IMG/VR virus record: IMGVR_UViG_3300014202_001569
Coordinates: 26,218 to 90,217 of that record
DNA: 64,000 nt
Strand: one strand, 5' to 3'
From: a virus
Shown: piece after piece, positions 28,911 to 63,738 of the stretch
Position numbering within the stretch: position 1 is the first letter of the stretch
Layout of the letters: every line of letters starts with the position of its first letter
Position numbers and translations under genes: made by a program
Notes under the pieces: model-generated
Told to the model about the DNA's origin: nothing
Databases searched by the model: none
Seen by the model: only the letters and a program-made list of their open reading frames with translations

Positions 28911-28993
28911 CGCGGGTTCTCCGTTAGGTGTTTGGGCACCTTATAAGGTACAATCGCAATTGTATCATAATGGGGTTGGGCGAACCCCGCTTG

Positions 28994-29164
28994 TTACTTC
29001 CCGAAACAGCAAACGACGGCGAGAGCGATACTGCGTTTGGTCGCTTCGATTTCCCTTACGCGATCCGTATGCCAGGTAGTACCTTCCTTCCATGCTGGCA
29101 TCTTGGCCACTTCCGCTTCGAGCGCTTCGAGATAGTCGTACTTGGCTCGCAGGTTCTTGTCCAT
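28994..29164 (-). CDS. Cassette mini-ORF (56 aa)
   Basis: MDKNLRAKYDYLEALE...FGK*, followed by a hairpin. Confidence 0.65.
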   Translation of the reverse strand: MDKNLRAKYDYLEALEAEVAKMPAWKEGTTWHTDRVREIEATKRSIALAVVCCFGK

Positions 29165-29251
29165 CGTTCGACTCCGTTAGGTGTTTGGGCACCTTACTAG
29201 GTACAATCGCAATTACGATATGTTAAGAGAGTGGGCGAACTCTCTTTAGTT

Positions 29252-29374
29252 TCAGCCATCGCTGAAGCTATCGAGCAGCTTCCGCCGCTGTTTCGGCGTG
29301 GTGAAGATCATGACCATCGTGGCGCAGATGATGAACGCGGGGACGCAAGCCAGGCGGATCAGTGTTTCCTTCAT
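29252..29374 (-). CDS. Cassette mini-ORF (40 aa, one TM)
   Basis: MKETLIRLACVPAFIICATMVMIF...DG*. Confidence 0.6.
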   Translation of the reverse strand: MKETLIRLACVPAFIICATMVMIFTTPKQRRKLLDSFSDG

Positions 29375-29467
29375 CGTCGTTCTCCGTTAGGTTGATTGGG
29401 CACCTTATAAGGTACAATCGCAATTACGATATGAATGGCAGGGTTTGCATTCCCCTGCCCCTCCCCT

Positions 29468-29887
29468 TTAGGGGAGGATTGGCTTATCGTAGTCCCATTG
29501 CTCTTGCCAGCCCTCGCAGACCCGTATGTTATGGGCTTTGATGCCCCTATCTTCCCAATGCGCTGCCTCCACTTCAGCGCCCTTCTGCGTTAGGTGATAG
29601 CTGGAAACATGGTAGTCGGGCGGCGAATCCCAATAGGCGTTGCCCTCGTCATCGTAGTCAAGGCCGTCATCCCAAACGTAGACAATCCAGCACCACTGCG
29701 GTTCAAAGTTATCCCAAGGGTAGCCTTGATAGCGGGCCTTGCGTTCGGCTTCGCGTTCGGCAAGCAGCTCGGCCTGCGCGTCGAGGTCAAGGTAGTTCCA
29801 GTGACGCACGTTCAACCCATGTAGCACGTCGGTCATGTGGTCAAGGTGGCAAGCGGGGGCCATCGGCTCGCGGCGGATAGTGACCAT
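29468..29887 (-). CDS. Cassette ORF, acidic and Trp-rich
   Basis: Motif 29927 and GGAG SD. Confidence 0.7.
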   Translation of the reverse strand: MVTIRREPMAPACHLDHMTDVLHGLNVRHWNYLDLDAQAELLAEREAERKARYQGYPWDNFEPQWCWIVYVWDDGLDYDDEGNAYWDSPPDYHVSSYHLTQKGAEVEAAHWEDRGIKAHNIRVCEGWQEQWDYDKPILP

Positions 29888-29972
29888 TCGACTTCTCCAG
29901 TTGGGGGTTGATTGGGCACCTTATATGGTACAATCGCAATTGTATCATAATGGAGTGGGCGAACTCCAAGCG

Positions 29973-30203
29973 TTACGCTGCTTCCATCGCGGCGACGGTT
30001 CGCGGGAACTCTTGCCGCATCATGTCAGGGCGGGAGAGAAGCAACTTGCCCGCATCCGAACCCATGAACAGGTAGAAGAAGAGACGCTGCTGGTCCGCGT
30101 GACTGAGGCGATACTTGCGGTTGTAGGCGGCGACCTGGAAGCGGAAGTAGATGACAGCGATTGCCAGGGCGACGGCGGCGAGCGCGGCTTCGAGATACTT
30201 CAT
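29973..30203 (-). CDS. Cassette ORF, N-terminal TM, ends -EAA
   Basis: Motif 30240 and SD. Confidence 0.7.
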   Translation of the reverse strand: MKYLEAALAAVALAIAVIYFRFQVAAYNRKYRLSHADQQRLFFYLFMGSDAGKLLLSRPDMMRQEFPRTVAAMEAA

Positions 30204-30291
30204 CGCGTTTCTCCGTTGGGGTGTTTGGGCACCTAACTTGGTACAATTGCAATTAGAGGAGGATTGGGGAGTGGGCGAACTCCCCGTGAGG

Positions 30292-30480
30292 TTAGCTGTC
30301 GCTGTTGAACATACTGCCGATGACAGCGATCAGTGCGGTCAGGACGTGGCCTGCGCAATCCATGAGGTTGAAGGCAATCCAGAAGTTCCAGAAGCCTCCC
30401 TCGCTGGCGTGGTGAAACCAAGCCACCACTAGCACAGCCAGGACCAGGACCAGGGCGATAACCACTAAGACTTCCACCAT
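30292..30480 (-). CDS. Cassette ORF, membrane protein
   Basis: Motif 30517 and GGAGG SD. Confidence 0.7.
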   Translation of the reverse strand: MVEVLVVIALVLVLAVLVVAWFHHASEGGFWNFWIAFNLMDCAGHVLTALIAVIGSMFNSDS

Positions 30481-30568
30481 GACTTCCTCCGAGTTAGGTG
30501 TTTGGGCACCTTACTTGGTACAATCGCAATTAGAGGATGAATGGGGAGTGGGCGAACTCCCCTTCCCT

Positions 30569-30772
30569 TTACCTTGGCACTATGCTAAGCCAAGCCTTGC
30601 GGTTGCTCTCCAGTGCCTCCAGGTTCAATTGCACGGCACGGTCGAGGTCTGCGGTCAGCCCGCCCCGCCCATCGGGGTAAAGGGTACGGCCCTCATGGAC
30701 GATGGCGTATTCGATGCAATCCAGGCGGGTTTCGGCGGCGGTTGCGACTTCGGGCACGATGGCGGTCAGCAT
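30569..30772 (-). CDS. Cassette ORF
   Basis: Start corrected to MLTAIVPE after SD. Confidence 0.65.
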   Translation of the reverse strand: MLTAIVPEVATAAETRLDCIEYAIVHEGRTLYPDGRGGLTADLDRAVQLNLEALESNRKAWLSIVPR

Positions 30773-30847
30773 GGTTCTCTCCGTTGGGGTGTTTGGGCAC
30801 CTTACTTGGTACAATCGCAATTAGAGGATGAATGGGCGAACCGCCCT

Positions 30848-31021
30848 TTACGGGCGGCGGTGGTTCTTGTAGCGGTCGGAACGCGGCTGGCGGGCGGTGG
30901 GCTTGTCATCATAGTAGTTCGGCAGGTTCGCCATGTTACGGGCAGGGCGGGCCATGCCGTCAACGCTGGCGCGGCGTTCTGCGGTGGTCTTGGGACGCTT
31001 CAAACCGAACTGGCTGGCCAT
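30848..31021 (-). CDS. Cassette ORF, basic
   Basis: Start corrected to MASQFGLK. Confidence 0.6.
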   Translation of the reverse strand: MASQFGLKRPKTTAERRASVDGMARPARNMANLPNYYDDKPTARQPRSDRYKNHRRP

Positions 31022-31101
31022 GTTTGGACTCCGTTGGATTGGGCACCTAATATGGTACAATTGCAATTGGGGTATCATTAGGGCATCCTTGCCCTTGCCC
31101 T

Positions 31102-31290
31102 TTACTCCCCCTTCCATTGCCGCTGCTTGCGGGCTTGCTTGACCTTGCGGCGATTGCCACGCTTGTCAGCCATCGCAGCTTGTGCGATTTGGACGCCAAT
31201 CGGGAACAGGTTGCCAGGCTGCACAGTGGCGATGGTGATGGTGAAGCCATCGCGGGACAGACGCTTGCGGGGTTCGGTGGTATTATGCAT
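31102..31290 (-). CDS. Cassette ORF, basic
   Basis: Motif 31311 and GGAGG. Confidence 0.65.
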   Translation of the reverse strand: MHNTTEPRKRLSRDGFTITIATVQPGNLFPIGVQIAQAAMADKRGNRRKVKQARKQRQWKGE

Positions 31291-31358
31291 GTGTTCCTCC
31301 TACCTTAACTGGTACAATTGCAATTAAGGTATGTATGGGCATCCTTGCCCATTTCCCC

Positions 31359-31616
31359 TTAGTCGGTCGTGCGGCAATAGCACCTGTAAGCCTTGCCGTC
31401 GTTGGCGTAGACGATGAGGTTGAAGCTATTGCCGCTCCCATCTTCCCGTTGGATGCTGGACAGCGTGACAGGGATGCCATTGATGGAAATGACGGCGTTG
31501 CGGTTGCTCATTGCGTTGAACAGGGTGAACTTCGTCATGGGCGTTGCACAGCGGGTGAGGCGCTGTTCCATCGTGAGAGCCAGGGTAGCCGAACGGCGAA
31601 CGGTTGAAGTGAGCAT
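31359..31616 (-). CDS. Cassette ORF
   Basis: Start corrected to MLTSTVRR. Confidence 0.6.
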   Translation of the reverse strand: MLTSTVRRSATLALTMEQRLTRCATPMTKFTLFNAMSNRNAVISINGIPVTLSSIQREDGSGNSFNLIVYANDGKAYRCYCRTTD

Positions 31617-31704
31617 CTGCGTTTCTCCGTTTGGGGTGTTTGGGCACCTAATATGGTACAATTGCAATTAGAGAAAGCGGGGTTGGCTTTCCCCCGCTCT
31701 TGCT

Positions 31705-31872
31705 TTACTCCTTCTCGAACAGGATGATACACGGCTTGCCATCGGGATCAGTGCTGACGATAGCATCGTCCACGCTGACGATGGGGCCATCCTTGCGACC
31801 CAGGTAGACACCCATGCCATCGGTCGCGGTTGCCAGCAACTGCCGCAGAGCTTCGACCTTGAGCGTATCCAT
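31705..31872 (-). CDS. Cassette ORF
   Basis: Start corrected to MDTLKVEAL. Confidence 0.65.
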   Translation of the reverse strand: MDTLKVEALRQLLATATDGMGVYLGRKDGPIVSVDDAIVSTDPDGKPCIILFEKE

Positions 31873-31934
31873 TGTTCTCTCCGTTGGGGTGTTTGGGCAC
31901 TTTAAGGGGTACAATCGCAATTAGGGGATGATAC

Positions 31935-31958
31935 AAAAAAGGCAGGGTTTCCCCTGCC
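31935..31958 (-). terminator. Family-A cassette terminator (GGCAGGG-GAAA-CCCTGCC-U6), representative copy
   Basis: + strand aaaaaaggcagggtttcccctgcc; near-identical copies at about 33485, 34088, 34696, 36032 and 37357. Confidence 0.85.
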
Positions 31959-31964
31959 TTTCCT

Positions 31965-32243
31965 TTAGACTACCTTTTCGCACAGTTCATTCAGCTTGCA
32001 GGCGAGGTCGGGGGAGAAGCAATCCCACCGATGTTCGCATTCCTCGGCAATGGCCATGATCTGCCAGGCCACGTCTTCGGGGATATGGAACGTAATGTCC
32101 TCATCGGCGTCCCAATCCAGTTCATTGTCGGGCGGTTCGCAATGCACCCACAGCAGCTTGTAAAGGTCATGCCCGTGGGCATAGCGGTCGCCAACCCAAT
32201 CCAGAGCCTTACGTTCGCCAGCGGTCAGAGTCAGGTGATACAT
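31965..32243 (-). CDS. Cassette ORF, acidic
   Basis: Start corrected to MYHLTLTAG. Confidence 0.7.
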   Translation of the reverse strand: MYHLTLTAGERKALDWVGDRYAHGHDLYKLLWVHCEPPDNELDWDADEDITFHIPEDVAWQIMAIAEECEHRWDCFSPDLACKLNELCEKVV

Positions 32244-32286
32244 GGCTTTCTCCGTTGTTTGGGCACCTAATATGGTACAATTGGAA

Positions 32287-32487
32287 TTAGGCGGCTCCCT
32301 TCTTTTGCCATTCCCATGACCATTCACCAGAGCGCTGTTCAGTGCCGCTGCCCCTTGCCCAATTGCGTATGGTATACATGACGAAGCTGGGGACTTGCGT
32401 GACGTTCTGCATGTAGATTGCTCCCGCCCTTGGGACTGGAACATTGGCGAACTTGACACCGCGACGATAGATGCTGATTTGTTCCAT
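32287..32487 (-). CDS. Cassette ORF ending -GAA
   Basis: Start MEQISIYRR; its stop codon is the TAA of the next motif. Confidence 0.7.
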   Translation of the reverse strand: MEQISIYRRGVKFANVPVPRAGAIYMQNVTQVPSFVMYTIRNWARGSGTEQRSGEWSWEWQKKGAA

Positions 32488-32592
32488 GTTCGACTCCGTT
32501 GGGGTTGTTTGGGCACCTAATATGGTACAATTGCAATTTAGGGGATGATAGGAAAAAAGCGGGGGTGGCATTCCCCCCGCTCCCCCTAACGA

Positions 32593-32829
32593 TTACGCTG
32601 CGGTCTTGCGCCACGGCACGCTACGGCTGCCACGGGTGAAGCCAGTGGATTTGGCATCGGCAAGCCACGTTCGGCCTTCCTCGATGGCGTCATGTGTGCT
32701 GGGGAAGATGCCAGCGCTCTCCCAGCCTACATTGGCCACGCCACCGTCGCGGACATAGGCCACGTTGAAGTCGAATAGCTTGCGTTCGGGGTCGATGAAC
32801 AGCAACAGTTCTGCACGAAGGTCAGGCAT
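32593..32829 (-). CDS. Cassette ORF ending -KTAA
   Basis: Start MPDLRAEL. Confidence 0.7.
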   Translation of the reverse strand: MPDLRAELLLFIDPERKLFDFNVAYVRDGGVANVGWESAGIFPSTHDAIEEGRTWLADAKSTGFTRGSRSVPWRKTAA

Positions 32830-32910
32830 GATACACTCCGTTGGGGATGTGGGCACCTATATTGGTACAATTGCAATTGGAGATGATTAGGGCGTCCTTG
32901 CCCTGCCCCA

Positions 32911-33111
32911 TTAGGCTACCATGTCGCTGAGTTGTTCGCTCTGCCCCTTATTGGCGTTGAAGGGGTAGAGGTAGAAGCCGTGATTGATGGTGTTGCCCAT
33001 CCACCACGTCTGCCCCATGTGCGTTACCAGCATCATATAGCCATTCTTGGCCTTGCGGTAACAGAGGGGGCCGAAGCTGCGGGCGCGTTGCCGACTGATG
33101 TAGACTCGCAT
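32911..33111 (-). CDS. Cassette ORF ending -VA
   Basis: Start MRVYISRQ. Confidence 0.65.
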   Translation of the reverse strand: MRVYISRQRARSFGPLCYRKAKNGYMMLVTHMGQTWWMGNTINHGFYLYPFNANKGQSEQLSDMVA

Positions 33112-33190
33112 GATACTTCTCCAGGGGTTGCGTTGCACCTAATATGGTACAATTGCAATAAGGGAGAAAGGGAGTGGGCGACTCCCTGCC

Positions 33191-33412
33191 TTACGCGGCG
33201 AGCTTGGCGTTGTCCTCGAAGACGGGAAGGGCGAACACCGTGAAGCCCTTCGTGCTACCGTCGATGCTGGTGAGCTTGTCATGGGTTGTCCAGACTTCCT
33301 CGCCACCGATGGCGAGCTTGATGTTGCCGCTGTCCGTTTCGGCAATGCACTTGCCGATCTTGCCGTTGAACAGAAACCGCTTGTTCACAAAGTAGGTCGT
33401 GACTTCCATCAT
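33191..33412 (-). CDS. Cassette ORF ending -KLAA
   Basis: Start MMEVTTYF. Confidence 0.7.
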   Translation of the reverse strand: MMEVTTYFVNKRFLFNGKIGKCIAETDSGNIKLAIGGEEVWTTHDKLTSIDGSTKGFTVFALPVFEDNAKLAA

Positions 33413-33518
33413 CTGCGTTTCTCCGTTTGGGGTGTTTGGGCACTTAACTTGGTACAATTGCAATTAGGGGATGATACAAACGAAAAAAGGCAGGGTTTGC
33501 TGTCCCCTGCCTTACCCC

Positions 33519-33797
33519 TTATTCCTTTTCGGTCAGTTGCGCCTTATGCTTGGCGATGAAGGCGCGAATGTCGGCCTGCATATCCAGCACCTGCTCCCAT
33601 TCGTCGCGGTAGAGCGTGACGGGGAATCGCCGCAAGCCGTCAAGCTGCACGGCACCCTTGGGAGATACCTTGAGGGTGAGCTTCTTCTTCGTCGCGGCCT
33701 TGACCTGTTCCGCCGAATTGTCCTCGATCAGCTTCGCGGCCTGCGCCTCGGTGAGCTTGCCATCCTTGACCTGCTGCATGATTTCGAGTACGTTCAT
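33519..33797 (-). CDS. Cassette ORF (FPVTLY..EW-type hypothetical protein)
   Basis: Motif 33837 and SD. Confidence 0.75.
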   Translation of the reverse strand: MNVLEIMQQVKDGKLTEAQAAKLIEDNSAEQVKAATKKKLTLKVSPKGAVQLDGLRRFPVTLYRDEWEQVLDMQADIRAFIAKHKAQLTEKE

Positions 33798-34116
33798 CTG
33801 CGTTTCTCCGTTTGGGGTTGATTGGGCACCTTATCTGGTACAATTGCAATTAGGGGATGATACGAAAAAAGGGAAGAGAGGCGAACCTCTCTTCCCAATG
33901 GTGAGTTAGCGTCGTCGCCTTGACTGCCATTTTGTGTCGGGCTTAGACCGCCAGTTTACGTCGGGCTTAGACGGGCCACACTTCGCAGGCTCCCCAGCTA
34001 CGGGACGTTTGTAGTGCGGGGTAACGTCCCATCCGACCCCTTCACTACTAATCTTGGTACAATTGCAATTAGGCCATGATGCAAACAAAAAAAGGCAGGG
34101 TTTCCCTGCCTTAGCC

Positions 34117-34347
34117 TTACGCGGCCAGCGCCTTCAAGTCCAGCGTACAGGTGGGGCGCTTGGCGAAGCGGTCGGGAAACCGCCTGAACTCCCGCAAAGC
34201 CTGCACCTCATCCCACCTTCCAGGGATGGTACGCTCCGCGATCACCTCCTTGCCCATGCGGACGTAGATCGTGGTCAGCGTCTTTTTGACGCTGCCGTTG
34301 CGCTGGGTGAAGGTGGACACGCCGACGTTCAGCTTGCCGATCAACAT
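34117..34347 (-). CDS. Cassette ORF ending -ALAA
   Basis: Motif 34384 and SD. Confidence 0.7.
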   Translation of the reverse strand: MLIGKLNVGVSTFTQRNGSVKKTLTTIYVRMGKEVIAERTIPGRWDEVQALREFRRFPDRFAKRPTCTLDLKALAA

Positions 34348-34433
34348 GCGTCAGACTCCGTGGGGTTGTTGGGCACCTAATATGGTACAATTGCAATTTG
34401 AATCATATTGGGAGTGGGCGAACTCCCAATTGT

Positions 34434-34628
34434 TTAGTTCTGGCGATACTTGGCGATAGCTTCCGCCAGCGATGCCTCCATCGTCTTGCCAGCCTGCACG
34501 CCAGCCATCGTGTCATTCCGCAGCTTGCCGAGGTCCATGATGTTGAACTGAATGCAATTGCCCTGCGTGCGGAACGCATCATCGAAAGCCTTCTCCAGCG
34601 CCTTCTCAGCCTTGCTCATTCGTGCCAT
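34434..34628 (-). CDS. Cassette ORF
   Basis: Start MARMSKAE. Confidence 0.7.
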   Translation of the reverse strand: MARMSKAEKALEKAFDDAFRTQGNCIQFNIMDLGKLRNDTMAGVQAGKTMEASLAEAIAKYRQN

Positions 34629-34729
34629 TGTCTTTCTCCGTGTTGGGGTGTTTGGGCACTTAACTTGGTACAATTGCAATTAGGGGATGATAGAAAAAAA
34701 GGCAGGGTTGCTGTCCCCTGCCTCACCCC

Positions 34730-34972
34730 TTAGACCTTTGCCAGCAGCTTCGCCCACTTCTCATGCTGTTTCCAGTGGGCGCAGACGTGTTGTTTCTCCC
34801 GCAAAGCGGTGCGGATACGCTCACGAATCTCATGCGTCTTGTAAGCGTAGGTGCAAGTCGCCCACAAGTCCTCGGAGAAGGCAAGCAAGGTCAAAGCCTG
34901 CTCATACTCCTCATTGTTGACCAGAGCCAGGATAGCGTCTTTCTGGCGGATCAGAGCGTTGTCAAGTTCCAT
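34730..34972 (-). CDS. Cassette ORF
   Basis: Start MELDNAL. Confidence 0.7.
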   Translation of the reverse strand: MELDNALIRQKDAILALVNNEEYEQALTLLAFSEDLWATCTYAYKTHEIRERIRTALREKQHVCAHWKQHEKWAKLLAKV

Positions 34973-35061
34973 GTTCGACTCCGTTAGTTGGGCACCTAAC
35001 TTGGTACAATCGCAATTAGAGGATGAATGGGGCAAGGTTTGCTTTCCCTTGCCCTTCCCCT

Positions 35062-35415
35062 TTACTTTAGGTAGACAATACCATGTGCGGTCAGGCACTT
35101 GCCGAAGTCATCGGAGAACACGCTGCCCCGTGCGTGCTTTGCGGGGGCTTTGAAGCCAGCCGCCTTATGAATGTCGCCCGCCTTGAGAGCGCCAAGCGTT
35201 TTGGTGAAGCCGTCTTGCAGGCAGATGAAGCAATAGACGCTAGTTGGTTCCCGCTTGCCGTTGCGTTCCTCCAGCACCACGACACGCGCCCACTTGTCAC
35301 TGATGAAGTCAGCGCGATGGGTGGGAGGTGCGGAGTAAGTGTAGCCCATCTGCTTCCAGTGTTCCGCCGTCACTTCGTCGGCCCGCGTCACAAAGGCGTC
35401 GATGCGATCTTTCAT
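35062..35415 (-). CDS. Cassette ORF, conserved phage hypothetical protein
   Basis: Start MKDRIDAF; SVYCFI...GDIHKAAGFKAPAKHARGSVF. Confidence 0.75.
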   Translation of the reverse strand: MKDRIDAFVTRADEVTAEHWKQMGYTYSAPPTHRADFISDKWARVVVLEERNGKREPTSVYCFICLQDGFTKTLGALKAGDIHKAAGFKAPAKHARGSVFSDDFGKCLTAHGIVYLK

Positions 35416-35461
35416 GATTCTCTCCGTTGGGGTTTGGGCACCTAACTTGGTACAATTGGAA

Positions 35462-35638
35462 TTAGGCCACTTGGTATTCGTGTTCCCCAATAACAATCAT
35501 ACCACCGAAGAATTGCCACGTTGGGCTTGACGCCAGTGCCGCTGTATGCTCTTTCTCCAGAGCAGGCATATCGGCCTTGATTTGTTCCGCCGTCAAGTCC
35601 TCACGGGTGTCACGATGATACGCTGCGATGATCTTCAT
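35462..35638 (-). CDS. Cassette ORF ending -VA
   Basis: Start MKIIAAYH; stop codon fused to the motif. Confidence 0.65.
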   Translation of the reverse strand: MKIIAAYHRDTREDLTAEQIKADMPALEKEHTAALASSPTWQFFGGMIVIGEHEYQVA

Positions 35639-35715
35639 GGTCAACTCCAGGGTTTGGGCACCTTACATGGTACAATCGCAATTAGGGTATAAAGGGAGTG
35701 GGCGACTCCCTGCCC

Positions 35716-35967
35716 CTAATCCCCTTCGTAGTCTGGCCCATAGTGATTCTCGAAGTCCTCCATTTCCTGGCGTTCGAGGATAACGTCGTGCGCCAATTCC
35801 GCATCCCAACTATCCTCGAAGTTGTCCTCATCGTCATCATCGTCATCATCGAAGATGGAAGGGCCGTCGCCATCGGAACAGCAAGGGCAAGGCGGGTCGC
35901 AAACGTCGCAGCGATTGTTGCCGTTGCAATCCTGGTCCAGTTCGTTACCGCAACCACAGTAAGGCAT
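35716..35967 (-). CDS. Cassette ORF, Cys-rich N-terminus and hyper-acidic C-terminus
   Basis: CGC..C....C..C.PPCPCC followed by a DDDDDDDEDNFED tract. Confidence 0.7.
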   Translation of the reverse strand: MPYCGCGNELDQDCNGNNRCDVCDPPCPCCSDGDGPSIFDDDDDDDEDNFEDSWDAELAHDVILERQEMEDFENHYGPDYEGD

Positions 35968-36063
35968 GGCGTTCTCCAGTTTGGGGTTCGTTGCACCTAA
36001 TATGGTACAATTGCAATTAGGGGATGATAAGAAAAAAGGCAGGGTTTCCCCTGCCCTTCCCCT

Positions 36064-36324
36064 TTACGCGGCGGCTTTGGCGGCTTGTTTCGGTGTCTTC
36101 TTGGCATGGGATGCCAGGATGCCTCGCACCTCGACGGATTCGAGTAGGATGTGCCGCAACACGTTGTCGATGTTGCCGCGACGGACTAACTCCGAACCAA
36201 TCGAAGACGCCAGAAGCGCTTTCAGCTTCTCCAGTGCCTCGCATTCCGTTTCGTGGCGACGCGCTTCATCGCGGTTGGTGAATTGCTTGCCGTCAGCGGT
36301 CTGAAACAGAGAAACAACCTTCAT
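36064..36324 (-). CDS. Cassette ORF ending -KAAA
   Basis: FQTADGKQFTNRDEARRHE N-terminus. Confidence 0.75.
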   Translation of the reverse strand: MKVVSLFQTADGKQFTNRDEARRHETECEALEKLKALLASSIGSELVRRGNIDNVLRHILLESVEVRGILASHAKKTPKQAAKAAA

Positions 36325-36375
36325 GGCAAAACTCCAGGGGTTTAGTGTTACACACCTTTACTGGTACAATTGGAA

Positions 36376-36576
36376 TTAGACACCAGCTGCCAGTGACGCC
36401 ACATACTGGAAGCGATAGACAAACCATTTGTCGCGGCTGTCTTCGGGCCGCACGCGGATTACCTTGCGGTCATGGACGTAACTCGCGTGCAGAGCGGCAG
36501 AGCGGGAGCAACTGGCCTGATAGATACCCTTGTAGCACCAGTGCCGACCGTACTTGATTTCCACTTCAAACCGCAT
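36376..36576 (-). CDS. Cassette ORF
   Basis: Motif 36610; stop codon fused to the next motif. Confidence 0.7.
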   Translation of the reverse strand: MRFEVEIKYGRHWCYKGIYQASCSRSAALHASYVHDRKVIRVRPEDSRDKWFVYRFQYVASLAAGV

Positions 36577-36656
36577 GGTAGACTCCGTTAGGTGTTGGGC
36601 ACCTATTATGGTACAATTGCAATTAGGGTATTATTAGGGCATCCTTGCCCTGCCCC

Positions 36657-36920
36657 TTAGACCATTGCCTTGCCACGCTTGCCGTCGATGCAATCCTTTG
36701 CGGTGCGATACCATTCCGTGCCATCGGACCATGCACGCCATTTCTTGCCGTAGTTGTTCGGGTCGGGATGCCCTGACAGCATGAAGAAGCCAGGAACGCT
36801 CCAGAGGTAGACGGTATCGCCATTGGCCAATGCTGCTTCCAGGTCGGGAGCAAGGGCCGCATAGGGGCGCTTACCGCCAGGGGAAAGGTAGTCACGCAGC
36901 TTGAAGTCTACTTTCGCCAT
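36657..36920 (-). CDS. Cassette ORF
   Basis: Start MAKVDFKL. Confidence 0.7.
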   Translation of the reverse strand: MAKVDFKLRDYLSPGGKRPYAALAPDLEAALANGDTVYLWSVPGFFMLSGHPDPNNYGKKWRAWSDGTEWYRTAKDCIDGKRGKAMV

Positions 36921-37002
36921 GATTGACTCCAGTTTGGGTATCGTTGCACCTATTATGGTACAATCGCAATTAGGGTATAATGGAGTGGGCGACTCCATTG
37001 CC

Positions 37003-37299
37003 CTACGCTGCCTTTTGCTTGGCAAGAAGCCATTCGTAGGCTTGTGCCCAGGCATATTCGCGGTCGAAGCGGCCCCAACCGAAATCCCCGCAAGGATGTG
37101 CCTCAAAGTAATGCGGGCTTTTGTCGAGAGTAAACTTGATGCTGCATTCCGCCATGCCGTCGTTGAAGATGTGTTCTTGCCACTGATAGCCCGCTGCCAG
37201 GAACGCTTTCTGAATCTTTTCGATCATGACTGACTCCTTTGGGGTTGCGTTGCACCTAACATGGTAGCCCTTTGCGTCACACATCAGAAGCCATCGCAT
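37003..37299 (-). CDS. Fused cassette ORF ending -KAA (internal second start at 37227)
   Basis: MRWLLMCDAKG is in frame with MIEKIQKAF across a half-motif. Confidence 0.6.
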   Translation of the reverse strand: MRWLLMCDAKGYHVRCNATPKESVMIEKIQKAFLAAGYQWQEHIFNDGMAECSIKFTLDKSPHYFEAHPCGDFGWGRFDREYAWAQAYEWLLAKQKAA

Positions 37300-37387
37300 T
37301 GCTATTCTCCTTTGCGTTGCACCTATTATGGTACAATTGCAATTAGGGGATGATAGGAAAAAAGGCAGGGTTTCCCCTGCCTTCCCG

Positions 37388-37630
37388 TTAGGCGGCGATT
37401 TTCTCGGTAACGTCGAAGAGAAGCCATTCCTTGGCATTGGCTGGCGTGATGTAGAAGAAATCCCACAGACCATGCTTGACTGGCAACTGCCATTCCGTGG
37501 GACGAGTTTTCCACGTTTTCAGCTTGCCATTGACACGGCAGCGCTTGGCCGAACCATCCGAATTGCGGGCGGTCTTGTGGTAGATCGTCTTGCCCTTGTA
37601 GAAACCAGCGGCCAATTCCTTCGTAATCAT
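37388..37630 (-). CDS. Cassette ORF ending -KIAA
   Basis: Start MITKELAA; RVNGKLKTWKTRP motif. Confidence 0.75.
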   Translation of the reverse strand: MITKELAAGFYKGKTIYHKTARNSDGSAKRCRVNGKLKTWKTRPTEWQLPVKHGLWDFFYITPANAKEWLLFDVTEKIAA

Positions 37631-37751
37631 TCCATTCTCCAGTGGGGTTGTTGGGCACCTATTATGGTACAATTGCAATTGAGACGGGAGTGGCGTAGGT
37701 TTGCCTACCTTACGCTGACAGCACCACGCTGCCAGGCCACTCCCGCCTCGT

Positions 37752-37931
37752 TTACGCTACATACAACCCTGTTTCACCCTTGACCACGGTGACGCAATCC
37801 GCTTCCGTTTCGAGCAGGGACGCTTCATTGCTACTCACGATATAGCTGCGCCACTTGCCACCTTGCCCTTCGTTGTAGGGCTTCCACTTGTCCCACATCT
37901 CCTGCAACAGTTCATCGCGTTCGTCAGGCAT
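37752..37931 (-). CDS. Cassette ORF ending -VA
   Basis: Start MPDERDEL. Confidence 0.65.
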   Translation of the reverse strand: MPDERDELLQEMWDKWKPYNEGQGGKWRSYIVSSNEASLLETEADCVTVVKGETGLYVA

Positions 37932-38029
37932 TTCATTCTCTCCATTTGGGGTTTGGGCACCTAATATGGTACAATTGCAATTAGGGGATGATACGAAAAA
38001 AAGCGGGGTTGGCTGTCCCCCGCTCTCCC

Positions 38030-38209
38030 CTAGATATTGTTGCCCCTGCTCCCGCACCACTCATTCTGCGGCCCGTCATCATCGTCAATCATGGGGCAGG
38101 CAGCACTCCAGCGGGAGTATTCTTCCATTGCCTCATTGTATTCATCGTAGCAAACCTCATCACAGAACTCGCGTTCGCCGCAGGGCTTCTGGCAGAATCG
38201 ACAGGCCAT
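38030..38209 (-). CDS. Cassette ORF, Zn-binding and acidic
   Basis: MACRFCQKPC..EFCDEVC. Confidence 0.65.
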   Translation of the reverse strand: MACRFCQKPCGEREFCDEVCYDEYNEAMEEYSRWSAACPMIDDDDGPQNEWCGSRGNNI

Positions 38210-38259
38210 TGTTCTCTCCAGGTTAGGACTTCGTTGCACCTATATTGGTACAATTGGAA

Positions 38260-38538
38260 TTACAAGTCCTTTTTCCGTGGCACGTCGTTGATGGTGTAAG
38301 TGAACTTGATGCGCTTCCGCTCACAGTAACGCCAGAGTGCCTCCTGCTTGTTGCGGTTGGGCAGCTTGCCGTTCTTTTCAAGCCAATTGGCTGCGGAGTC
38401 CATCCAGGCGCTATCATACCCATAGGCATAGTCCACCTTATGGGCTAGTTCATCGTCAATCATGATGACGACGGAATGATAGGTCTGCCCTTTGCGCTTG
38501 TTGAACCAGCGGCAGCCGTGCAATTCGAGCGTTTTCAT
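38260..38538 (-). CDS. Hypothetical protein
   Basis: Start MKTLELHG; YAYGYDSAW motif. Confidence 0.7.
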   Translation of the reverse strand: MKTLELHGCRWFNKRKGQTYHSVVIMIDDELAHKVDYAYGYDSAWMDSAANWLEKNGKLPNRNKQEALWRYCERKRIKFTYTINDVPRKKDL

Positions 38539-38539
38539 G

Positions 38540-38734
38540 TTAGTTTCCTTTGCAATGCGGGCAAGCGATAGCACCGACGCCAGGGACAGCGGTTTTGCCA
38601 CGGTAAGAATTGGCACGCACCCGCGTTTCATTCTTGCAGGCACCGCACTTATAGACGAACACGGTTCGCCAAGGCGGTTGGAAATCGCGGACACGTTCGG
38701 AGCGTACTGGCGTTGACAGGTTCAGAGTGTTCAT
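38540..38734 (-). CDS. Zn-ribbon mini-protein
   Basis: CGAC...CPHC. Confidence 0.7.
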   Translation of the reverse strand: MNTLNLSTPVRSERVRDFQPPWRTVFVYKCGACKNETRVRANSYRGKTAVPGVGAIACPHCKGN

Positions 38735-38796
38735 TTGGTTTCTCCTTACCTATACTGGTACAATTGCAATTAGAGGACAATTGGGCGATTGCCTCC

Positions 38797-39057
38797 TTAC
38801 AGTAGAACCACCACGTTCATTCCGTCCAGTCGCCGCTCAACCCACTCTAGCACTTCGGCCCGATACAATTCGGTGACTTCGTGTTCTGCAAGCAACACCT
38901 CGCAATAGGCGTTGATGCTGTCATCGTGTTCCTTGATACGTTCGTCCTGCCCATCGGCGTCGAAATGGGCATCATACTTCAAGACGGCATCAGCGGCATT
39001 GTGGCCAGCGATGACACCTTGGACGCCATCACAGTTCTTGACGTGGAACACTGGCAT
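38797..39057 (-). CDS. Cassette ORF, acidic
   Basis: Start MPVFHVKN (or MTMPV at 39063). Confidence 0.65.
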   Translation of the reverse strand: MPVFHVKNCDGVQGVIAGHNAADAVLKYDAHFDADGQDERIKEHDDSINAYCEVLLAEHEVTELYRAEVLEWVERRLDGMNVVVLL

Positions 39058-39197
39058 TGTCATTCTCCGTTTGATTGGGCACCTAATATGGTACAATTGC
39101 AATTAGGTTTGGCCAAAAGAAAAACCCCACGGGATTGTTCCCGTGGGGTTTCGATCAGCCTTCCCCTCCTATATCGGTGTAGAGGTCATCCAGCCAC

Positions 39198-39374
39198 TTA
39201 TCCTGCTTTTCGTCGCTCGGCACCGTCGTCTTCGTTTGCGGGTCGCTCATTGGCGTTTCGTTCCTCGAATTGTCGGATTTGTTCTTTCTCGGCACGGGTC
39301 CAATCCTTTTCGCCACGGTGAACGGGTCGAATCTTGCCACCACTCTTGTCATACTGATTACGGTTCCAGCCCAT
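39198..39374 (-). CDS. Cassette ORF, charged
   Basis: Start MGWNRNQY. Confidence 0.55.
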   Translation of the reverse strand: MGWNRNQYDKSGGKIRPVHRGEKDWTRAEKEQIRQFEERNANERPANEDDGAERRKAG

Positions 39375-39423
39375 GATACTCTCCGTTGATTGATCGCCAC
39401 TCTCTGTTTGGTACAATTGGAAT

Positions 39424-39516
39424 TTACAGTGCCTTGATACAGAACCGAATCAGGCCGTAGGCAAAACTGCCCATCACCACGATGTAGAGCAGGACCAGAC
39501 CAAGTTGATTTTCCAT
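39424..39516 (-). CDS. 30-aa single-TM peptide
   Basis: MENQLGLVLLYIVVMGSFAYGLIRFCIKAL*; stop codon abuts the motif. Confidence 0.55.
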   Translation of the reverse strand: MENQLGLVLLYIVVMGSFAYGLIRFCIKAL

Positions 39517-39662
39517 TCTGCACCTTTTGGGTTTGAGTTCGTTGCACCTTATCTGGTACAATTGCAATTAGAGGATGATACGAAAAAAGGCAAGGGGTGA
39601 TGTCCCCTTGCCTCAAATTTTAGTTAATTGCCCTTTACGGGGGCGGTCTTGCGGCTTTATTG

Positions 39663-39947
39663 CTACGAATTGAGGTCGGCAATGGTGTAGAGCCATTCAG
39701 ACTTAGGAAGGCTGAGCGTCTTGGATTGAGCAATGCCAAGCTCGGTTGGCAAAATACTCCAGTAGTTCCCAGCGCTTCCTGTTTGGCGTATGAGGCCAGC
39801 ATCGGACAAGTGCAACAAAGTAAGCAAGCACTTACGAAAACAAACACGCCAACCAGAAACATGATCGCGGTGATTACATTCCTCCCATGTATGCACAAGG
39901 TCAAGTAGGATGCGACTCGCCAGACGGTTCTGAGCCAAGTTGAGCAT
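39663..39947 (-). CDS. Hypothetical protein (frame uncertain)
   Basis: Start MLNLAQNR downstream of motif 39990; an alternative overlapping frame exists. Confidence 0.4.
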   Translation of the reverse strand: MLNLAQNRLASRILLDLVHTWEECNHRDHVSGWRVCFRKCLLTLLHLSDAGLIRQTGSAGNYWSILPTELGIAQSKTLSLPKSEWLYTIADLNS

Positions 39948-39948
39948 G

Positions 39949-40188
39949 TTAGCCCTTTTTGCGTTTCTTCTTCTTGCCACACTCATCTTGGTACAATTGC
40001 AATTCCTGCTCGCTCACCTCGTCGTCCGTCCATTCAGGCACCACCACGGGCGGCACGGGCTTCAAACTGGCGGAACAGTGGACGCCATTAGGCCGCAAAC
40101 CCCCGCCCTGATGATCGACAAAGCTCTTGTCTGGAGTGTAAGACACCAAACTCCTACACTCCAGACAGTAGGCCACGCTATAGACCAT
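39949..40188 (-). CDS. Zn-finger-like ORF with the motif inside its 3' end
   Basis: CLEC...HC; ELQLYQ is the translated motif. Confidence 0.6.
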   Translation of the reverse strand: MVYSVAYCLECRSLVSYTPDKSFVDHQGGGLRPNGVHCSASLKPVPPVVVPEWTDDEVSEQELQLYQDECGKKKKRKKG

Positions 40189-40423
40189 CCTTCAACTCCT
40201 CTTTGAAGTCATCCCAATAGTCGTCGGGCAAGTCATTCTCTTCGGGCGGATACAACTGAGCCATGATGAAAGCCGTGTACGCCGCCGTTCCAGGCTGAGG
40301 CCCATTCGGACCAAAATCCGTCTTGATGCCCTGGCAACACACGCAGTCCTTATGACAGGACACAGCACGATCTTCACACGTCTCATGATCGTTATGATCG
40401 GGATGTTCGCATTTCATGTTCAT
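40178..40423 (-). CDS. Leaderless Cys/His-rich acidic ORF
   Basis: ATG exactly 9 nt after GTACC. Confidence 0.7.
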   Translation of the reverse strand: MNMKCEHPDHNDHETCEDRAVSCHKDCVCCQGIKTDFGPNGPQPGTAAYTAFIMAQLYPPEENDLPDDYWDDFKEELKDGL

Positions 40424-40446
40424 GCCCTTTTTGGTACAATTGGAAT

Positions 40447-40647
40447 TTAGGCCGCTTTCCCGATGACAACCTTTGCCATACCCATCAACGTGCGGGCAAT
40501 GGCATCCTGTCTGTCAATCGCCTGCACCTTGTAGAGCGTAATCAAGGTAGGCGACAACGCATCCTGCACTAACTTGCGGAACACTCGCACCTTGTAGCCC
40601 TGGCTTGGATAGCACGGATGATACACTTCGACGTAGAACTCTTTCAT
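40447..40647 (-). CDS. Cassette ORF ending -GKAA
   Basis: Motif 40670 and AAGGAG. Confidence 0.7.
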   Translation of the reverse strand: MKEFYVEVYHPCYPSQGYKVRVFRKLVQDALSPTLITLYKVQAIDRQDAIARTLMGMAKVVIGKAA

Positions 40648-40682
40648 GTTTGTTCTCCTTACCTAAACTGGTACAATTGGAA

Positions 40683-40871
40683 TTAGAAGGGGATTTCTTC
40701 TTCCACTTTGTTCCACGTTGCCCGATAGGTAGCGACTCTGGCGACTTCATCGCTCCGAACCCATTCGCCCTTGAGTTGCGGGGGCTTGCAGCACAGTATC
40801 AACCGATGAAAGTTCCCTTCCTTCTGATGCGCCACCACGTCATCCCCGAACTCATCAATCGTTTCGTGCAT
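40683..40871 (-). CDS. Cassette ORF
   Basis: Start MHETIDEF. Confidence 0.65.
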   Translation of the reverse strand: MHETIDEFGDDVVAHQKEGNFHRLILCCKPPQLKGEWVRSDEVARVATYRATWNKVEEEIPF

Positions 40872-40951
40872 GTTTGTTTTCTCCTTACCCAAACTGGTAC
40901 AATCGCAATTAGCCCTAAACGAAAAAGGGCGGGATTGCTCCCGCCCCACCC

Positions 40952-42061
40952 CTACTTCTTATTGAATAAACCCTTCAAGATGGAATCTTCCGCCTTCAAC
41001 CATACCTCCTTGAGCGGAACCTTATGCTTGCGGGCATTGAACAACACGCCAGTAAACACCGTCTCACCCTCAATCAAGATGGCAAAATCCTTCTGGTTCT
41101 CTTCATCCTTGACGCAGTGCCACAACGATTCCAATTCATTGTAAGCACCATCTACCTTGCCCTTGTAATGCTTGAAACAATCCGTAATTTCAGGATACGT
41201 CGCAAGCAATTCGTCGCCTTCACCCTCCAAGATGAACGGCAACAGAGTCGAAGGATTGTAAAGCGCGTCACCATTCGCACCCTTCATCTTATGCAGCGAT
41301 AGATAACGCTTGTTCTTGATCTTCCAACGACGGTTCGCGTCATCCTTCACAACGCAACCTTCCCACGTCGCTTCTGGCTGCGAATTGACGTAATCCGTTA
41401 CGTCGTCAGCACTTCGGAGCGAATACTGGCCAACCGTCTTGAACAGTGGGACATTTTGCGGGCCAACTTCTTCTTCGCCACAGAATGCGGAAAGCTGGTA
41501 GACGCACGGCTGAGCATACTCCCGAACCACCTTGTTCCAAAGGGAGCAAAACTCGCAAGCGTAACTCAACGAAGGATCAAGGTACAATTGTAATTCTTGC
41601 AAGTCCTTGATGCCCAGCGCCTGTAAGATACCTTCCTTCCAGGTGAAGGAAGCTGGCATCTTATGGTAGTTCGCCTGCCATTCGGTGTTGAACATGCCCA
41701 TGTTCGCGTAGGAACCACGGGTATTCACACGCCATTCGCCATCGAAGTGATAGAACAGCAGCAAGCTGCCGTCTACCTTCTCCAGCGCAACAGACTTATC
41801 CCAATTGAACAGCGGCATTTCGTCCGCTACTTCACCCCAATTGAAAAATCGGGGGAAGGCACGCGCCACCAGCGAATGGTCCTCAGTGTTGAGAACTAAG
41901 CCACGGCATTCGCGGACAATGGGATCAGTCTTCGGAGAGTCGATTTGGCTATAGTTCAGGATAGCCAGGGGAAGCGTATCATGGCGATTGACGGAGATAT
42001 GTAGTTCCGTTTCCAGGTCCGTCAGAGTCTTGCCAGAACGCAGATAGTCGATAGTCTTCAT
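40952..42061 (-). CDS. rnl1: RNA ligase, T4 Rnl1 family
   Basis: RECRGLVL, RAFPRFFNWGE, EKVDGS (adenylation Lys), EGCVV, KIKNKRY. Confidence 0.9.
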   Translation of the reverse strand: MKTIDYLRSGKTLTDLETELHISVNRHDTLPLAILNYSQIDSPKTDPIVRECRGLVLNTEDHSLVARAFPRFFNWGEVADEMPLFNWDKSVALEKVDGSLLLFYHFDGEWRVNTRGSYANMGMFNTEWQANYHKMPASFTWKEGILQALGIKDLQELQLYLDPSLSYACEFCSLWNKVVREYAQPCVYQLSAFCGEEEVGPQNVPLFKTVGQYSLRSADDVTDYVNSQPEATWEGCVVKDDANRRWKIKNKRYLSLHKMKGANGDALYNPSTLLPFILEGEGDELLATYPEITDCFKHYKGKVDGAYNELESLWHCVKDEENQKDFAILIEGETVFTGVLFNARKHKVPLKEVWLKAEDSILKGLFNKK

Positions 42062-42120
42062 TTTCTTTCTCCTCTAATCTAATTGGTACAATCGCAATTA
42101 GAGGAGAAAGGGACGGCCCC

Positions 42121-43632: not shown

Positions 43633-43661
43633 TGCAAGCCTCCGAATAGAGAAAAGGTCAG

Positions 43662-43736
43662 TACCGCTAGGGGGATTTGAACCCCGCATTTTCTGGTTGA
43701 AAGCCAGGTGTCCTATCCAGATTAGACGATAGCGGC
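43662..43736 (-). tRNA. trnE: tRNA-Glu(UUC), CCA not encoded
   Basis: GCCGCTA acceptor; CTGG-CTTTCAA-CCAG anticodon arm; GGGG-TTCAAAT-CCCC T-arm; 3' A then CTG. Confidence 0.92.
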
Positions 43737-43743
43737 ATAACAG

Positions 43744-44082: not shown

Positions 44083-44092
44083 GTTAGCTCCT

Positions 44093-50928: not shown

Positions 50929-51079
50929 ACTTCACTTGGTACAATTGCAATTGTTGGATAGATACAGTTGTGTCTCAATTCAACTTCTGGTTATATCGCC
51001 GCCACAACCGTCTTAACAACAATCGTATATTTGATTACAAGTATTACTTGGAGCGAATCAGGTTATATTGGCGTGGGCG

Positions 51080-62287: not shown

Positions 62288-62309
62288 GCCCTCTTTGGTA
62301 CAATTGCAA

Positions 62310-62723
62310 TTAGAGCATACGACGCACTTCGCATTCCATGCTTTCATTATGGCTAAGATTGCGTGCTAGTTCATCTGCCGCCTCCCTAGTCAAATCCTTC
62401 TTAACTGGCACTGCATCCATGTGGGCTTCAACAACATCTTTAGCGTCTTTTAGGCCAGCACCAGTAACGGCACGATAAGCCTTAATAGCCTTAATCTTCT
62501 GGTTGGCGCTCCAGAACATGACGACTTGCCACTTATTATCGTTCAGGATAGTAAGTTTCTCAATAGGTACGTCAACGTGGAAGTTACCATCAAGATCGGC
62601 CACGATGGTCATTACGAAGCCATTCTTTTCATAAATGGCACGAATCTTACCAGTGGTTTCGCCTTCGCCGCCGACGTGAAAGGCATTGGTTTTGATGGTG
62701 GTATCGAGCAGATTAGTAATCAT
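62310..62723 (-). CDS. Protein with ribosomal bL12 C-terminal-domain-like region
   Basis: QKIKAIKAYRAVTGAGLKDAKDVVE...VKKDLTREAADEL. Confidence 0.75.
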   Translation of the reverse strand: MITNLLDTTIKTNAFHVGGEGETTGKIRAIYEKNGFVMTIVADLDGNFHVDVPIEKLTILNDNKWQVVMFWSANQKIKAIKAYRAVTGAGLKDAKDVVEAHMDAVPVKKDLTREAADELARNLSHNESMECEVRRML

Positions 62724-62725
62724 AA

Positions 62726-62902
62726 TTACCTCTTATTGGTATACACTTTGAGGATAGTATATTCGCAATCGCCCATCAGGTCAGCGGGGGTTTTGTCGAT
62801 ATAAGCGATACATTCGCCTTCGGTATCGGCACGGTGGACTTCATTCAGGCTTTCGCCCCTGATTTCGGCCACGATATACCTAGTCTTCATTGTGCCCTTC
62901 AT
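62726..62902 (-). CDS. Hypothetical protein (58 aa, not in track)
   Basis: Manual translation MKGTMKTRYIVAE...TNKR*. Confidence 0.5.
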   Translation of the reverse strand: MKGTMKTRYIVAEIRGESLNEVHRADTEGECIAYIDKTPADLMGDCEYTILKVYTNKR

Positions 62903-62955
62903 TTAGTTCTCCTATTGAAGAAAGGGCGGGTTGGCATTCCCCGCCCTGCGAGTGT

Positions 62956-63645
62956 TTACGCATCCTTCATGGTTGGCATGAGCCACAGCTTTTTAGAGCC
63001 GAATACAGCATTAGAAATAAGGCTGAATCGCCCCAAGAGAGCAAGCGTAGCTGGAGTATCATTTGCAAGACACTTATGCAGTTCTTCCCGCTTACGTTCA
63101 TCGCTGACATTAGCCAGCCGTTCCGCAAGCACTTCATTTTCAAGACACTGCACAATATCTTCGTGCAAATTGAAACCCTTAACAATCTTGAAGCGAATCG
63201 CCCTAAGAAGTCTGAGCGAATCTTCAAAGAAGCGGTCATACGCTTTGCCGACGCAACGAATGAGTCGGTTATCAAGATCAATTCGACCGTTGAACGGGTC
63301 GATATATTCGCCAGAGATTTCGTCCACGGCGATAGCATTCATGGTGAAGTCACGACGCGACAGGTCATCGTGTAGAGTGCCTACACTAACGCTATCGGGT
63401 CGGCGTCCATCCGAATACTGGCCATCCTTACGGCAGAGAACGAAGTCTGCTGGCAGCTTGCCCTTGATATGGGCACGAACGGTCCAGAATTGGGGAGATT
63501 CAAGGTAGATTTCGCCTTGATTCTTAACCCATTCGACCATAGCTTCGTAGGACGGCGCTTCCACGGCGAAGTCTAGGTCTTTGGAACGGACGCCCAGGAG
63601 TTCATCCCGAACAAATCCGCCCACTCGGTAAATTTTGATGTTCAT
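62956..63645 (-). CDS. cca: Second, short class II tRNA nucleotidyltransferase
   Basis: Start MNIKIYRVGGFVRD; KDLDFAV, YSDGRRPDSV loop, RRDFTMN, EDSLRLLRAIRF, ERKREE. Confidence 0.9.
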   Translation of the reverse strand: MNIKIYRVGGFVRDELLGVRSKDLDFAVEAPSYEAMVEWVKNQGEIYLESPQFWTVRAHIKGKLPADFVLCRKDGQYSDGRRPDSVSVGTLHDDLSRRDFTMNAIAVDEISGEYIDPFNGRIDLDNRLIRCVGKAYDRFFEDSLRLLRAIRFKIVKGFNLHEDIVQCLENEVLAERLANVSDERKREELHKCLANDTPATLALLGRFSLISNAVFGSKKLWLMPTMKDA

Positions 63646-63738
63646 TGTGTCCTCCTTGCTCAACTTGGTACAATTGCAATTCAGTCCCAAAAACAGGTAC
63701 GCTTGCATTTGCCGCAAGTGAAGAAGGGATAGTTCGGG

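Follow-up and report, generated by a model that had tools for sequence, protein, structure and literature searches.

A 16-nt sequence block that recurs 66 times in a single orientation along a fragment of a huge phage genome is, in our reading, a promoter (probability about 0.85), and would be the recognition element of a phage-specific promoter class. The DNA analysed is a 64,000-nt stretch, hereafter the window, which comprises bases 245,656-309,655 of the 340,934-bp IMG/VR virus record IMGVR_UViG_3300014202_001569. Searching for TAATTSCRATTGTACCW with up to two mismatches gave 66 matches in the window, all of them on the minus strand between 28946 and 63682, compared to a mean of 0.07 matches and a maximum of 1 in shuffled sequence. 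The structural region at 1-28900, which holds the tape-measure and baseplate genes, contains no copy. The initial annotation of this DNA, which had described about 65 copies in one orientation and their absence from the structural region, was therefore accurate on both counts. A scan of the whole record, which that annotation had suggested, found 83 copies of the 15-nt core (up to one mismatch), 81 of them on the minus strand at 274.6-336 kb, so that the array runs about 27 kb past the window end and only part of the regulon is visible in the window. The two outlier copies lie at 90.6 kb (plus strand) and 109.7 kb (minus strand).

28946..63682, minus strand: array of 66 copies of the promoter-like block (c/t)AATTSCRATTGTACCA, spaced about 336 nt apart where dense and more widely towards 63 kb

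Sixteen positions of the motif are near-invariant (AATTGCAATTGTACCA), which is true also of the 50 copies without the common leader, and a weaker a-a-n-t-a-g-G-T follows 3' of the block. The compact single-block element of the initial annotation was thus confirmed as a single block, although it really consists of about 16 nt plus a weak initiation region. In the commonest form of the motif the 10 bp of the upstream half, AATTGCAATT, make up a perfect palindrome, a dyad that is broken in the common variants AATTGCGATT and AATTCCAATT. The element does not resemble the main bacterial promoter types: matches to a sigma-70-type promoter (-35 TTGACA/-10 TATAAT) occur in the array at chance level (14 vs 13.8 expected), the motif logo has one block and no conserved -35, and inspection for the sigma-54 signature GG-N10-GC found no GG 12 nt upstream of any GC or GT in the block, which agrees with the earlier statement that both signals are lacking. 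Additionally, the sigma-28 (FliA) pattern TAAA-N15-GCCGATAA is missing from the logo, and the motif, being 16 nt long and containing G/C, is not a T4-type late promoter, the A/T-only TATAAATA read by gp55. As would suit a T7-type promoter, the 16-nt block is continuous and leads into an A/T-rich spacer before the predicted start site. A host repeat or repetitive extragenic palindrome (REP), the alternative that the initial annotation had raised, was also looked for: all matches to the 16-mer in 596 Gb of prokaryote genomes are single and scattered, about as many as chance would give, and the motif is enriched in none of the genomes of 185,579 species. Scans of IMG/VR likewise gave chance matches only, plus a contig overlapping the known region.

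Units downstream of the motif

The sequence downstream of the motif was surveyed at the 65 window copies that fit a stricter pattern. At 51 of these sites a ribosome-binding site (RBS) and start codon lie 20-45 nt downstream, mostly by way of a shared leader (aGGTGCCCAAAC...GGAG), five sites have a very short leader with an RBS, eight are of the leaderless type, with ACCA and the ATG 8-10 nt apart, and one is followed by a tRNA-Tyr/tRNA-Glu pair. Across the whole record, ATG stands exactly 8 nt after ACCA at 11 sites. The survey, together with an Rfam match to a transfer-messenger RNA (tmRNA), bears out the placement given by the initial annotation, namely before small genes, a tRNA pair and a pair of non-coding RNAs, one of them putative. 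The units discussed below are the following:

28946..41000, minus strand: dense one-gene cassettes, each with a GC-rich hairpin (some with a T-run), the motif, the shared leader (aGGTGCCCAAAC...GGAG) and a small open reading frame (ORF)
50928..50953, minus strand: leaderless example, ACCA, 8 nt and the ATG of an 80-aa ORF
43661..43866, minus strand: non-coding unit, motif copy at 43850-43866 and, 19 nt on, tRNA-Tyr and tRNA-Glu
46709..47019, minus strand: motif copy at 47003-47019, putative unannotated structured RNA at 46862-46994 and tmRNA at 46709-46847
40952..42100, minus strand: motif copy at 42084-42100 before the gene of a T4 Rnl1-type RNA ligase of 369 aa (PF09511, E 1.6e-11)
47071..48162, minus strand: gene of a DUF932 protein, 363 aa by the longest frame, with a motif copy at 48134-48150 at its 5' end
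62956..63682, minus strand: motif copy at 63666-63682 before a gene of the CCA-adding/poly(A) polymerase family (PF01743, E 4e-25)

The dense cassettes have a G+C fraction of 0.51-0.57 compared to 0.41 in the structural region, and stable hairpins are concentrated before the motif. The mean folding energy of the 50 nt upstream of the 81 minus-strand record copies was -13.6 kcal/mol vs -7.9 kcal/mol at control positions, it reached -15.8 kcal/mol in the dense part of the array (53 sites, record 274-296 kb), and values of -15 kcal/mol or lower were found at 37% of motif sites vs 7% of controls. This enrichment of upstream hairpins indicates that the order within a unit reads terminator, promoter, leader, gene. 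By window part, G+C is about 0.41 in the structural region (1-28000), 0.51-0.57 in the array at 28000-48000 and about 0.46 past 48 kb.

The motif is not confined to coding units, since it precedes the tRNA pair and the tmRNA unit, and the outlier copy at 109.7 kb, isolated and 165 kb away from the array, shares its strand with a cluster of 15 tRNA genes and lies 35 nt before the first of them. This placement before tRNA and tmRNA genes argues for a signal for transcription and not for translation. The tmRNA scored 48.1 bits in Rfam vs a gathering score of 47, and the next motif copy, at 46693-46709, abuts its 3' end; it is a mini-tmRNA of only about 139 nt that nevertheless spans model positions 1-374, with most of the mRNA-like and pseudoknot part missing. 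The DUF932 gene probably starts further downstream than its longest frame, because the motif copy sits at the 5' end of that frame.

Strict co-orientation with the downstream genes, enrichment over chance, a fixed distance to the ATG and upstream hairpins are together the behaviour of a promoter, and in this sense the dedicated regulon promoter proposed by the initial annotation is supported by inference. While the geometry of the promoter, the content of the regulon and the lineage variants are seen in the sequences, we infer the start site, as we do the timing of the regulon (early, according to that annotation) and the identity of its reader: transcription would begin 7-9 nt after ACCA, because the ATG position is fixed, a G-T is conserved at ACCA+7/+8 and the same geometry is found in relatives. 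According to the model that we propose, the block would span about -24 to -9 and be followed by a short A/T-rich stretch, with the start at the conserved G/A. The product would be either a transcript with a roughly 30-nt shared leader carrying the GGAG RBS or an mRNA starting at the AUG or 2-3 nt before it. As many copies follow a hairpin terminator, each small gene would form its own unit, and the shared junctions could also allow shuffling of cassettes. The regulon would drive small ORFs, tRNAs, the mini-tmRNA and RNA-repair enzymes, and in relatives also the gene of a 333-aa sigma-like protein.

The source phage and the motif in its relatives

Among the proteins encoded by the record are a tape-measure protein, a DnaE-type DNA polymerase III alpha subunit and a T4 gp20-type portal protein that contains an intein. 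They assign the record to a huge myovirus within the broader T4 portal lineage; the source phage is uncultured, huge (about 600 kb) and T4-related. The intein (PF14890) occupies residues about 115-330 of the portal gene, outside the window (L014:4797-7364, minus strand). The nearest public genome is that of the uncultured phage LR756511.1, complete at 595,163 bp, whose portal is 81% and whose gp55-like sigma is 83% identical; no near-identical DNA was found among GenBank phages, and our literature search found no paper naming LR756511 or the motif. Gene-by-gene comparison shows that the record is a fragment without an equivalent of roughly 105-325 kb of LR756511.1, and an identical copy of one record protein is also present on a 623,153-bp contig. 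The IMG/VR label 'provirus, 68% complete' appears to be an artefact of trimming, given that the contig with this protein measures 623 kb and that the counterparts of the missing part in the 595-kb relative are phage genes and not host DNA. Two further relatives were compared, a 390-kb IMG/VR record (G002) and a complete 533-kb genome (G003). G002, labelled '98% complete', is likewise a fragment, as it has no equivalent of 310-513 kb of LR756511.1, a region carried by a 187-kb companion contig from the same sample.

The source-phage motif has no copy in LR756511.1, which carries instead (TTATA)AAGCTGTAC(T/A)AA, with about 130 copies of the AGCTGTAC type, the same TAC+11 distance to leaderless ATGs and a shared leader of its own. 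In G002 there are 107 copies of GCTTAGTTGTACCA (full form ATAGCTTAGTTGTACCA), 101 of them on one strand, and the TAC+11 spacing to leaderless ATGs is found again. A TGTAC core is therefore common to the three lineages, which differ mainly in the two preceding bases (AT, GT, GC) and in the conserved upstream length, the upstream half being long and invariant in the source phage and G002 and short and degenerate in LR756511.1. Individual junctions have also changed type: sediment relatives carry the AGCTGTAC type at the junction after the tmRNA, where the source phage has its own, and LR756511.1 has its own variant about 300 nt upstream of the tRNA cluster orthologous to that at the 109.7-kb outlier. 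Positional homology of this outlier extends to the downstream tRNA cluster only, and not to the exact spacing. The tRNA clusters themselves consist entirely of Leu, Ser and Tyr species, which have long variable arms, with 15 genes at record 103113-109686 (minus strand) and 11 in LR756511.1 (L042:14397-17520).

No TGTAC-type motif was found in the complete G003, where about 30 sites of the form TTTACAACC-N11-tGGTAnnAT are ordinary sigma-70-type promoters with a -35 and an extended -10; TTTACAACC we take to be the -35 of T4 early promoters. The abundant k-mers of this genome were also considered as promoters and proved to be a coding 33-nt tandem repeat, about 4 kb of which lies in one gene at 294.6-298.6 kb. 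Since the lineage variants keep the geometry and the 16-mer is no bacterial repeat, the comparison argues for a reader that is phage-encoded and changes with the phage. Such a reader would co-evolve with the motif, the TGTAC core being kept while the flanks change between relatives.

Other promoter-like classes and the reader of the motif

Many genes outside the array have a TATATA(A/G) or TAAATA element 4-5 nt ahead of their ATG, and the same elements occur 15-40 nt before genes led by an RBS. Genes of this TA[AT]ATA class, which resembles T4 late promoters, include the tape-measure gene, large structural genes and replication genes.

6827..12340, minus strand: tape-measure gene of the TA[AT]ATA class, without the 16-nt motif, preceded by TAAATA with the ATG 5 nt after

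Such sites, for example at window 12323-12340 and 25355-25380 and at many other places in the record, imply leaderless late mRNAs. Several of these genes begin MKTF..W, N-termini that were flagged earlier as capsid-targeting-like. As canonical TTGACA/TATAAT-type sites are also present in these genomes, the TGTAC class appears from sequence comparison to be one of at least three promoter-like classes, host-type, TGTAC-type and TA[AT]ATA-type.

The reader of the motif is quite probably phage-encoded and located outside the window, as the initial annotation had supposed, with candidates elsewhere in the genome or in the part missing from the record. That annotation had named an RNA polymerase (RNAP), a sigma or an activator; sigma candidates were indeed found, but a classical single- or multisubunit RNAP is not supported. 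The families PF00940, PF00623 and PF00562 had no match above cut-off in this record, nor PF00940 and PF00562 in the complete LR756511.1 (PF00940 only at E 0.03 over 36 residues), and no DFDGD motif was found in five genomes. Large unannotated proteins (1199, 1055, 803 and 1496 aa), considered as hidden polymerases, gave no Pfam, PHROG or PDB-sequence signal. Sigma-like genes, on the other hand, number four to five per genome in the clade. This record has two gp55-like proteins of 178 and 131 aa, gp55-type late sigmas being phrog_234, and LR756511.1 has both of these plus a 165-aa sigma (sig165), a 333-aa sigma-like protein (sig333) and, in split form, a homologue of another sigma-like protein, about 276 aa long. 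The two gp55-like proteins seem better matched, judging by the elements themselves, to the TAAATA and TATATA classes. The 131-aa protein was also considered as the reader and set aside; it is 43% identical between the source phage and LR756511.1, and its apparent absence from G002 is void, G002 being a fragment. A variant of the local motif lies 40-55 nt upstream of sig333 in both LR756511.1 and G002, which fits a cascade; this gene thus belongs to the regulon and is unlikely to be what initiates it.

Among the sigmas sig165 is the most likely candidate. It has regions 2 and 4 only, is closest to FliA/WhiG, and is encoded by LR756511.1 and G002 but not by G003. Its gene is part of a conserved PhoH/dUTPase module that has no TGTAC sites and occupies the upstream end of a long unidirectional motif-bearing region; no TGTAC sites were found around three further homologues. 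Directly after it there is always a conserved gene of about 190 aa (L051:1102-1704, minus strand, and orthologues), whose product could be a partner or an anti-sigma. We propose that this FliA/WhiG-like sigma would redirect the host core polymerase to the motif inside a cascade of several sigmas, and give slightly less than even odds to a phage sigma acting in this way.

Several observations weigh against this proposal. The block is a contiguous 16-17-nt duplex-type element ending in GTACC without a normally spaced -35, which would be atypical for a sigma of regions 2 and 4 and looks more like a T7-type promoter. The presence and absence pattern of sig165 (LR756511.1 and G002, not G003) is common to about 195 reading frames, and profiling of this kind was accordingly unable to single it out. 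Upstream of sig165 there is a conserved TATATA element, of the class that also precedes structural genes. As the record has no equivalent of about 105-325 kb of LR756511.1, sig165 is known from the relatives. As regards the promoter itself, one metatranscriptome gave only contigs of relatives at 90-95% identity, with ends at repeat borders as in the DNA runs; this metatranscriptome and three DNA runs hold 5-12% of the sequence words.

The main rival reader would be a new minimal single-subunit RNAP, made early by the host polymerase and acting on the motif as on a T7-style promoter. The candidate is a 394-aa protein encoded outside the window at record 60718-61902 (L005:9718-10902, minus strand). 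The architecture of the motif, a long near-invariant block with an A/T-rich spacer, a purine start and lineage switches of 2-3 bp, fits such an enzyme. Furthermore, an alignment of 38 family members has an invariant GR-V-H, a motif A with D225...Q230-P231 and no steric-gate Glu, a motif B with R285 and K289, and a motif C that reads HDS as in T7 RNAP, and the LR756511.1 orthologue weakly matches PF00940 (E 0.03). The AlphaFold model (pLDDT 90) predicts an N-terminal winged helix, similar to LexA-type and MarR-type winged helices (Z 5-6.6), and a compact palm and fingers of PolA/T7-RNAP type that VIA-align matches to yeast mitochondrial RNAP (Z 12.9 over 337 residues), T7 RNAP (Z 12.3) and N4 RNAPII (Z 9.2). 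The gene is preceded by TGGTAAAAT, 6 nt before its ATG, a host-type extended -10, and is found in all three motif-bearing lineages (in G002, on the companion contig) and not in the motif-less G003. However, family-A DNA polymerases match the model equally or better (Z 13.7-12.7), the top 50 Foldseek matches are all DNA polymerases, and motif B, in which Phe replaces Tyr639 of T7 RNAP, is that of a DNA polymerase. A PF00476 DNA polymerase gene adjoins the 394-aa gene, which suggests a role in replication or repair, and the winged-helix domain has diverged no further between lineages than has the catalytic part. About 190 other viral contigs encode distant homologues, and in one of these bearers, the 642-kb LR756502.1, the dominant k-mer, TTAATATATAA, is not of the long TGTAC type. 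To our knowledge, no autonomous promoter-specific polymerase is as small as this. We regard it as rather unlikely that the 394-aa protein is a promoter-specific RNAP reading the TGTAC-type block, of a family found only in uncultured huge phages. The family has at least 120 metagenomic members and no Pfam domain, and its relatives in GenBank phage records come almost all from uncultured huge phages (595-735 kb), plus one weak partial match.

The block might also be mainly the site of a phage activator or repressor, MotA-like or operator-like, beside a weak core promoter used by the host holoenzyme or another sigma. A dimeric binding protein is suggested by the palindromic AATTGCAATT, and the upstream half, which varies in length and degeneracy by lineage, may be separable from the TGTAC part; but AATTGCGATT and AATTCCAATT break the dyad, no TAnnnT-type -10 lies at a usable distance before the leaderless ATGs and no candidate activator was found, which makes this distinctly improbable. 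We consider it highly improbable that a host factor, be it an alternative sigma or, in an unusual host, the primary one, reads the motif and that the regulon is truly immediate-early. In T4-like phages, small-gene arrays beside tRNAs generally form the earliest class and rely on the host polymerase, and the equivalent G003 promoters are of sigma-70 type; against this stand the three different flanks around TGTAC in three related phages, the TTGACA/TATAAT-type sites of the same genomes, which imply that the hosts use canonical promoters, and the lack of enrichment of the motif in any of the 185,579 species. Hardly any credence is left for an element that is not a promoter at all, such as a joint for recombination or shuffling, a site of RNA processing or some other intergenic repeat. 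Contigs of relatives do join cassettes in differing orders with breakpoints at cassette borders, as proposed for the promoter-early stem-loop (PeSL) cassettes (PMC4122927), but shuffling leaves unexplained the strict orientation, the exact 8-nt spacing to leaderless ATGs, the placement before tRNA operons far from the array and a geometry that is kept while the sequence changes between lineages.

Relation to known systems

PeSL cassettes are known from T4-type phages (Arbiol et al. 2010, PMC2839356; Comeau et al. 2014, PMC4122927). The array resembles them in its terminator/promoter joints between small variable ORFs, with a stem-loop directly upstream, in a phage of the T4 portal lineage; its repeated joints may also serve as exchange points, and relatives have the cassettes in other orders. 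In this regard, contigs of the 90-95% relatives skip or reorder cassettes, although these are metagenome contigs, where repeats can also misjoin. PeSLs carry host sigma-70 early promoters, in contrast to the 16-nt, non-sigma-70 and lineage-varying block of the source phage, which is present in 83 to about 130 copies per genome and in many units that are leaderless. The cassette layout is already known, and what differs is the lineage-specific promoter that it carries. The earlier remark that a regulon of this kind is not one to be recognised was too strong as regards the layout, although consensus, copy number and leaderless design are indeed unusual.

The regulon is unusually large, with 83 copies in the source record and about 107 and about 130 in two relatives, and a high-information signal that switches between close relatives would mark a reader and a promoter that co-evolve. 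For a clade of uncultured phages of 500-600 kb, these data offer a testable transcription map in which three or more promoter classes appear, together with as many as five sigma-like genes and a widespread use of leaderless mRNAs. The identity of the reader would explain how tRNAs, the mini-tmRNA and RNA-repair genes are expressed in these phages. It would bring to light either a compact sigma-promoter recognition of a new kind or a minimal RNA polymerase that is itself new, and in both cases short orthogonal promoter/factor pairs would become available for engineering. Should the 394-aa enzyme prove to be the reader, it and the lineage-specific promoters would amount to transcription systems that are orthogonal by nature.

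Promoter classes that are specific to a phage, with phage sigmas or T7-like enzymes as their readers, are well known. Promoters of the T7 group (T7, T3, SP6) are contiguous near-invariant blocks of about 17-23 bp, A/T-rich before a purine start, with specificity switches of a few bp. The motif would resemble them in having one block, an A/T-rich stretch and lineage switches of few bp, but the block ends about 8 nt before the inferred start and does not run through +1, no PF00940 polymerase accompanies it and its copy number is five to eight times higher. The presence of several phage sigma-like proteins in one genome recalls the sigma cascades of SPO1 (gp28, then gp33/34) and T4 (gp55, late TATAAATA), as do the gp55-type late sigmas, the separate TA[AT]ATA class and the location of one sigma gene inside the regulon of another class. 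The motif differs both from SPO1 middle promoters, which consist of two blocks, and from T4 late promoters, which are short and made of A/T only. Lastly, N4 RNAPII is a two-subunit enzyme that transcribes middle genes, needs accessory proteins and has no long duplex promoter. The 394-aa protein is like it in being a phage polymerase of about 400 aa predicted to belong to the T7/PolA superfamily (model Z 9.2), and unlike it in having a winged-helix domain.

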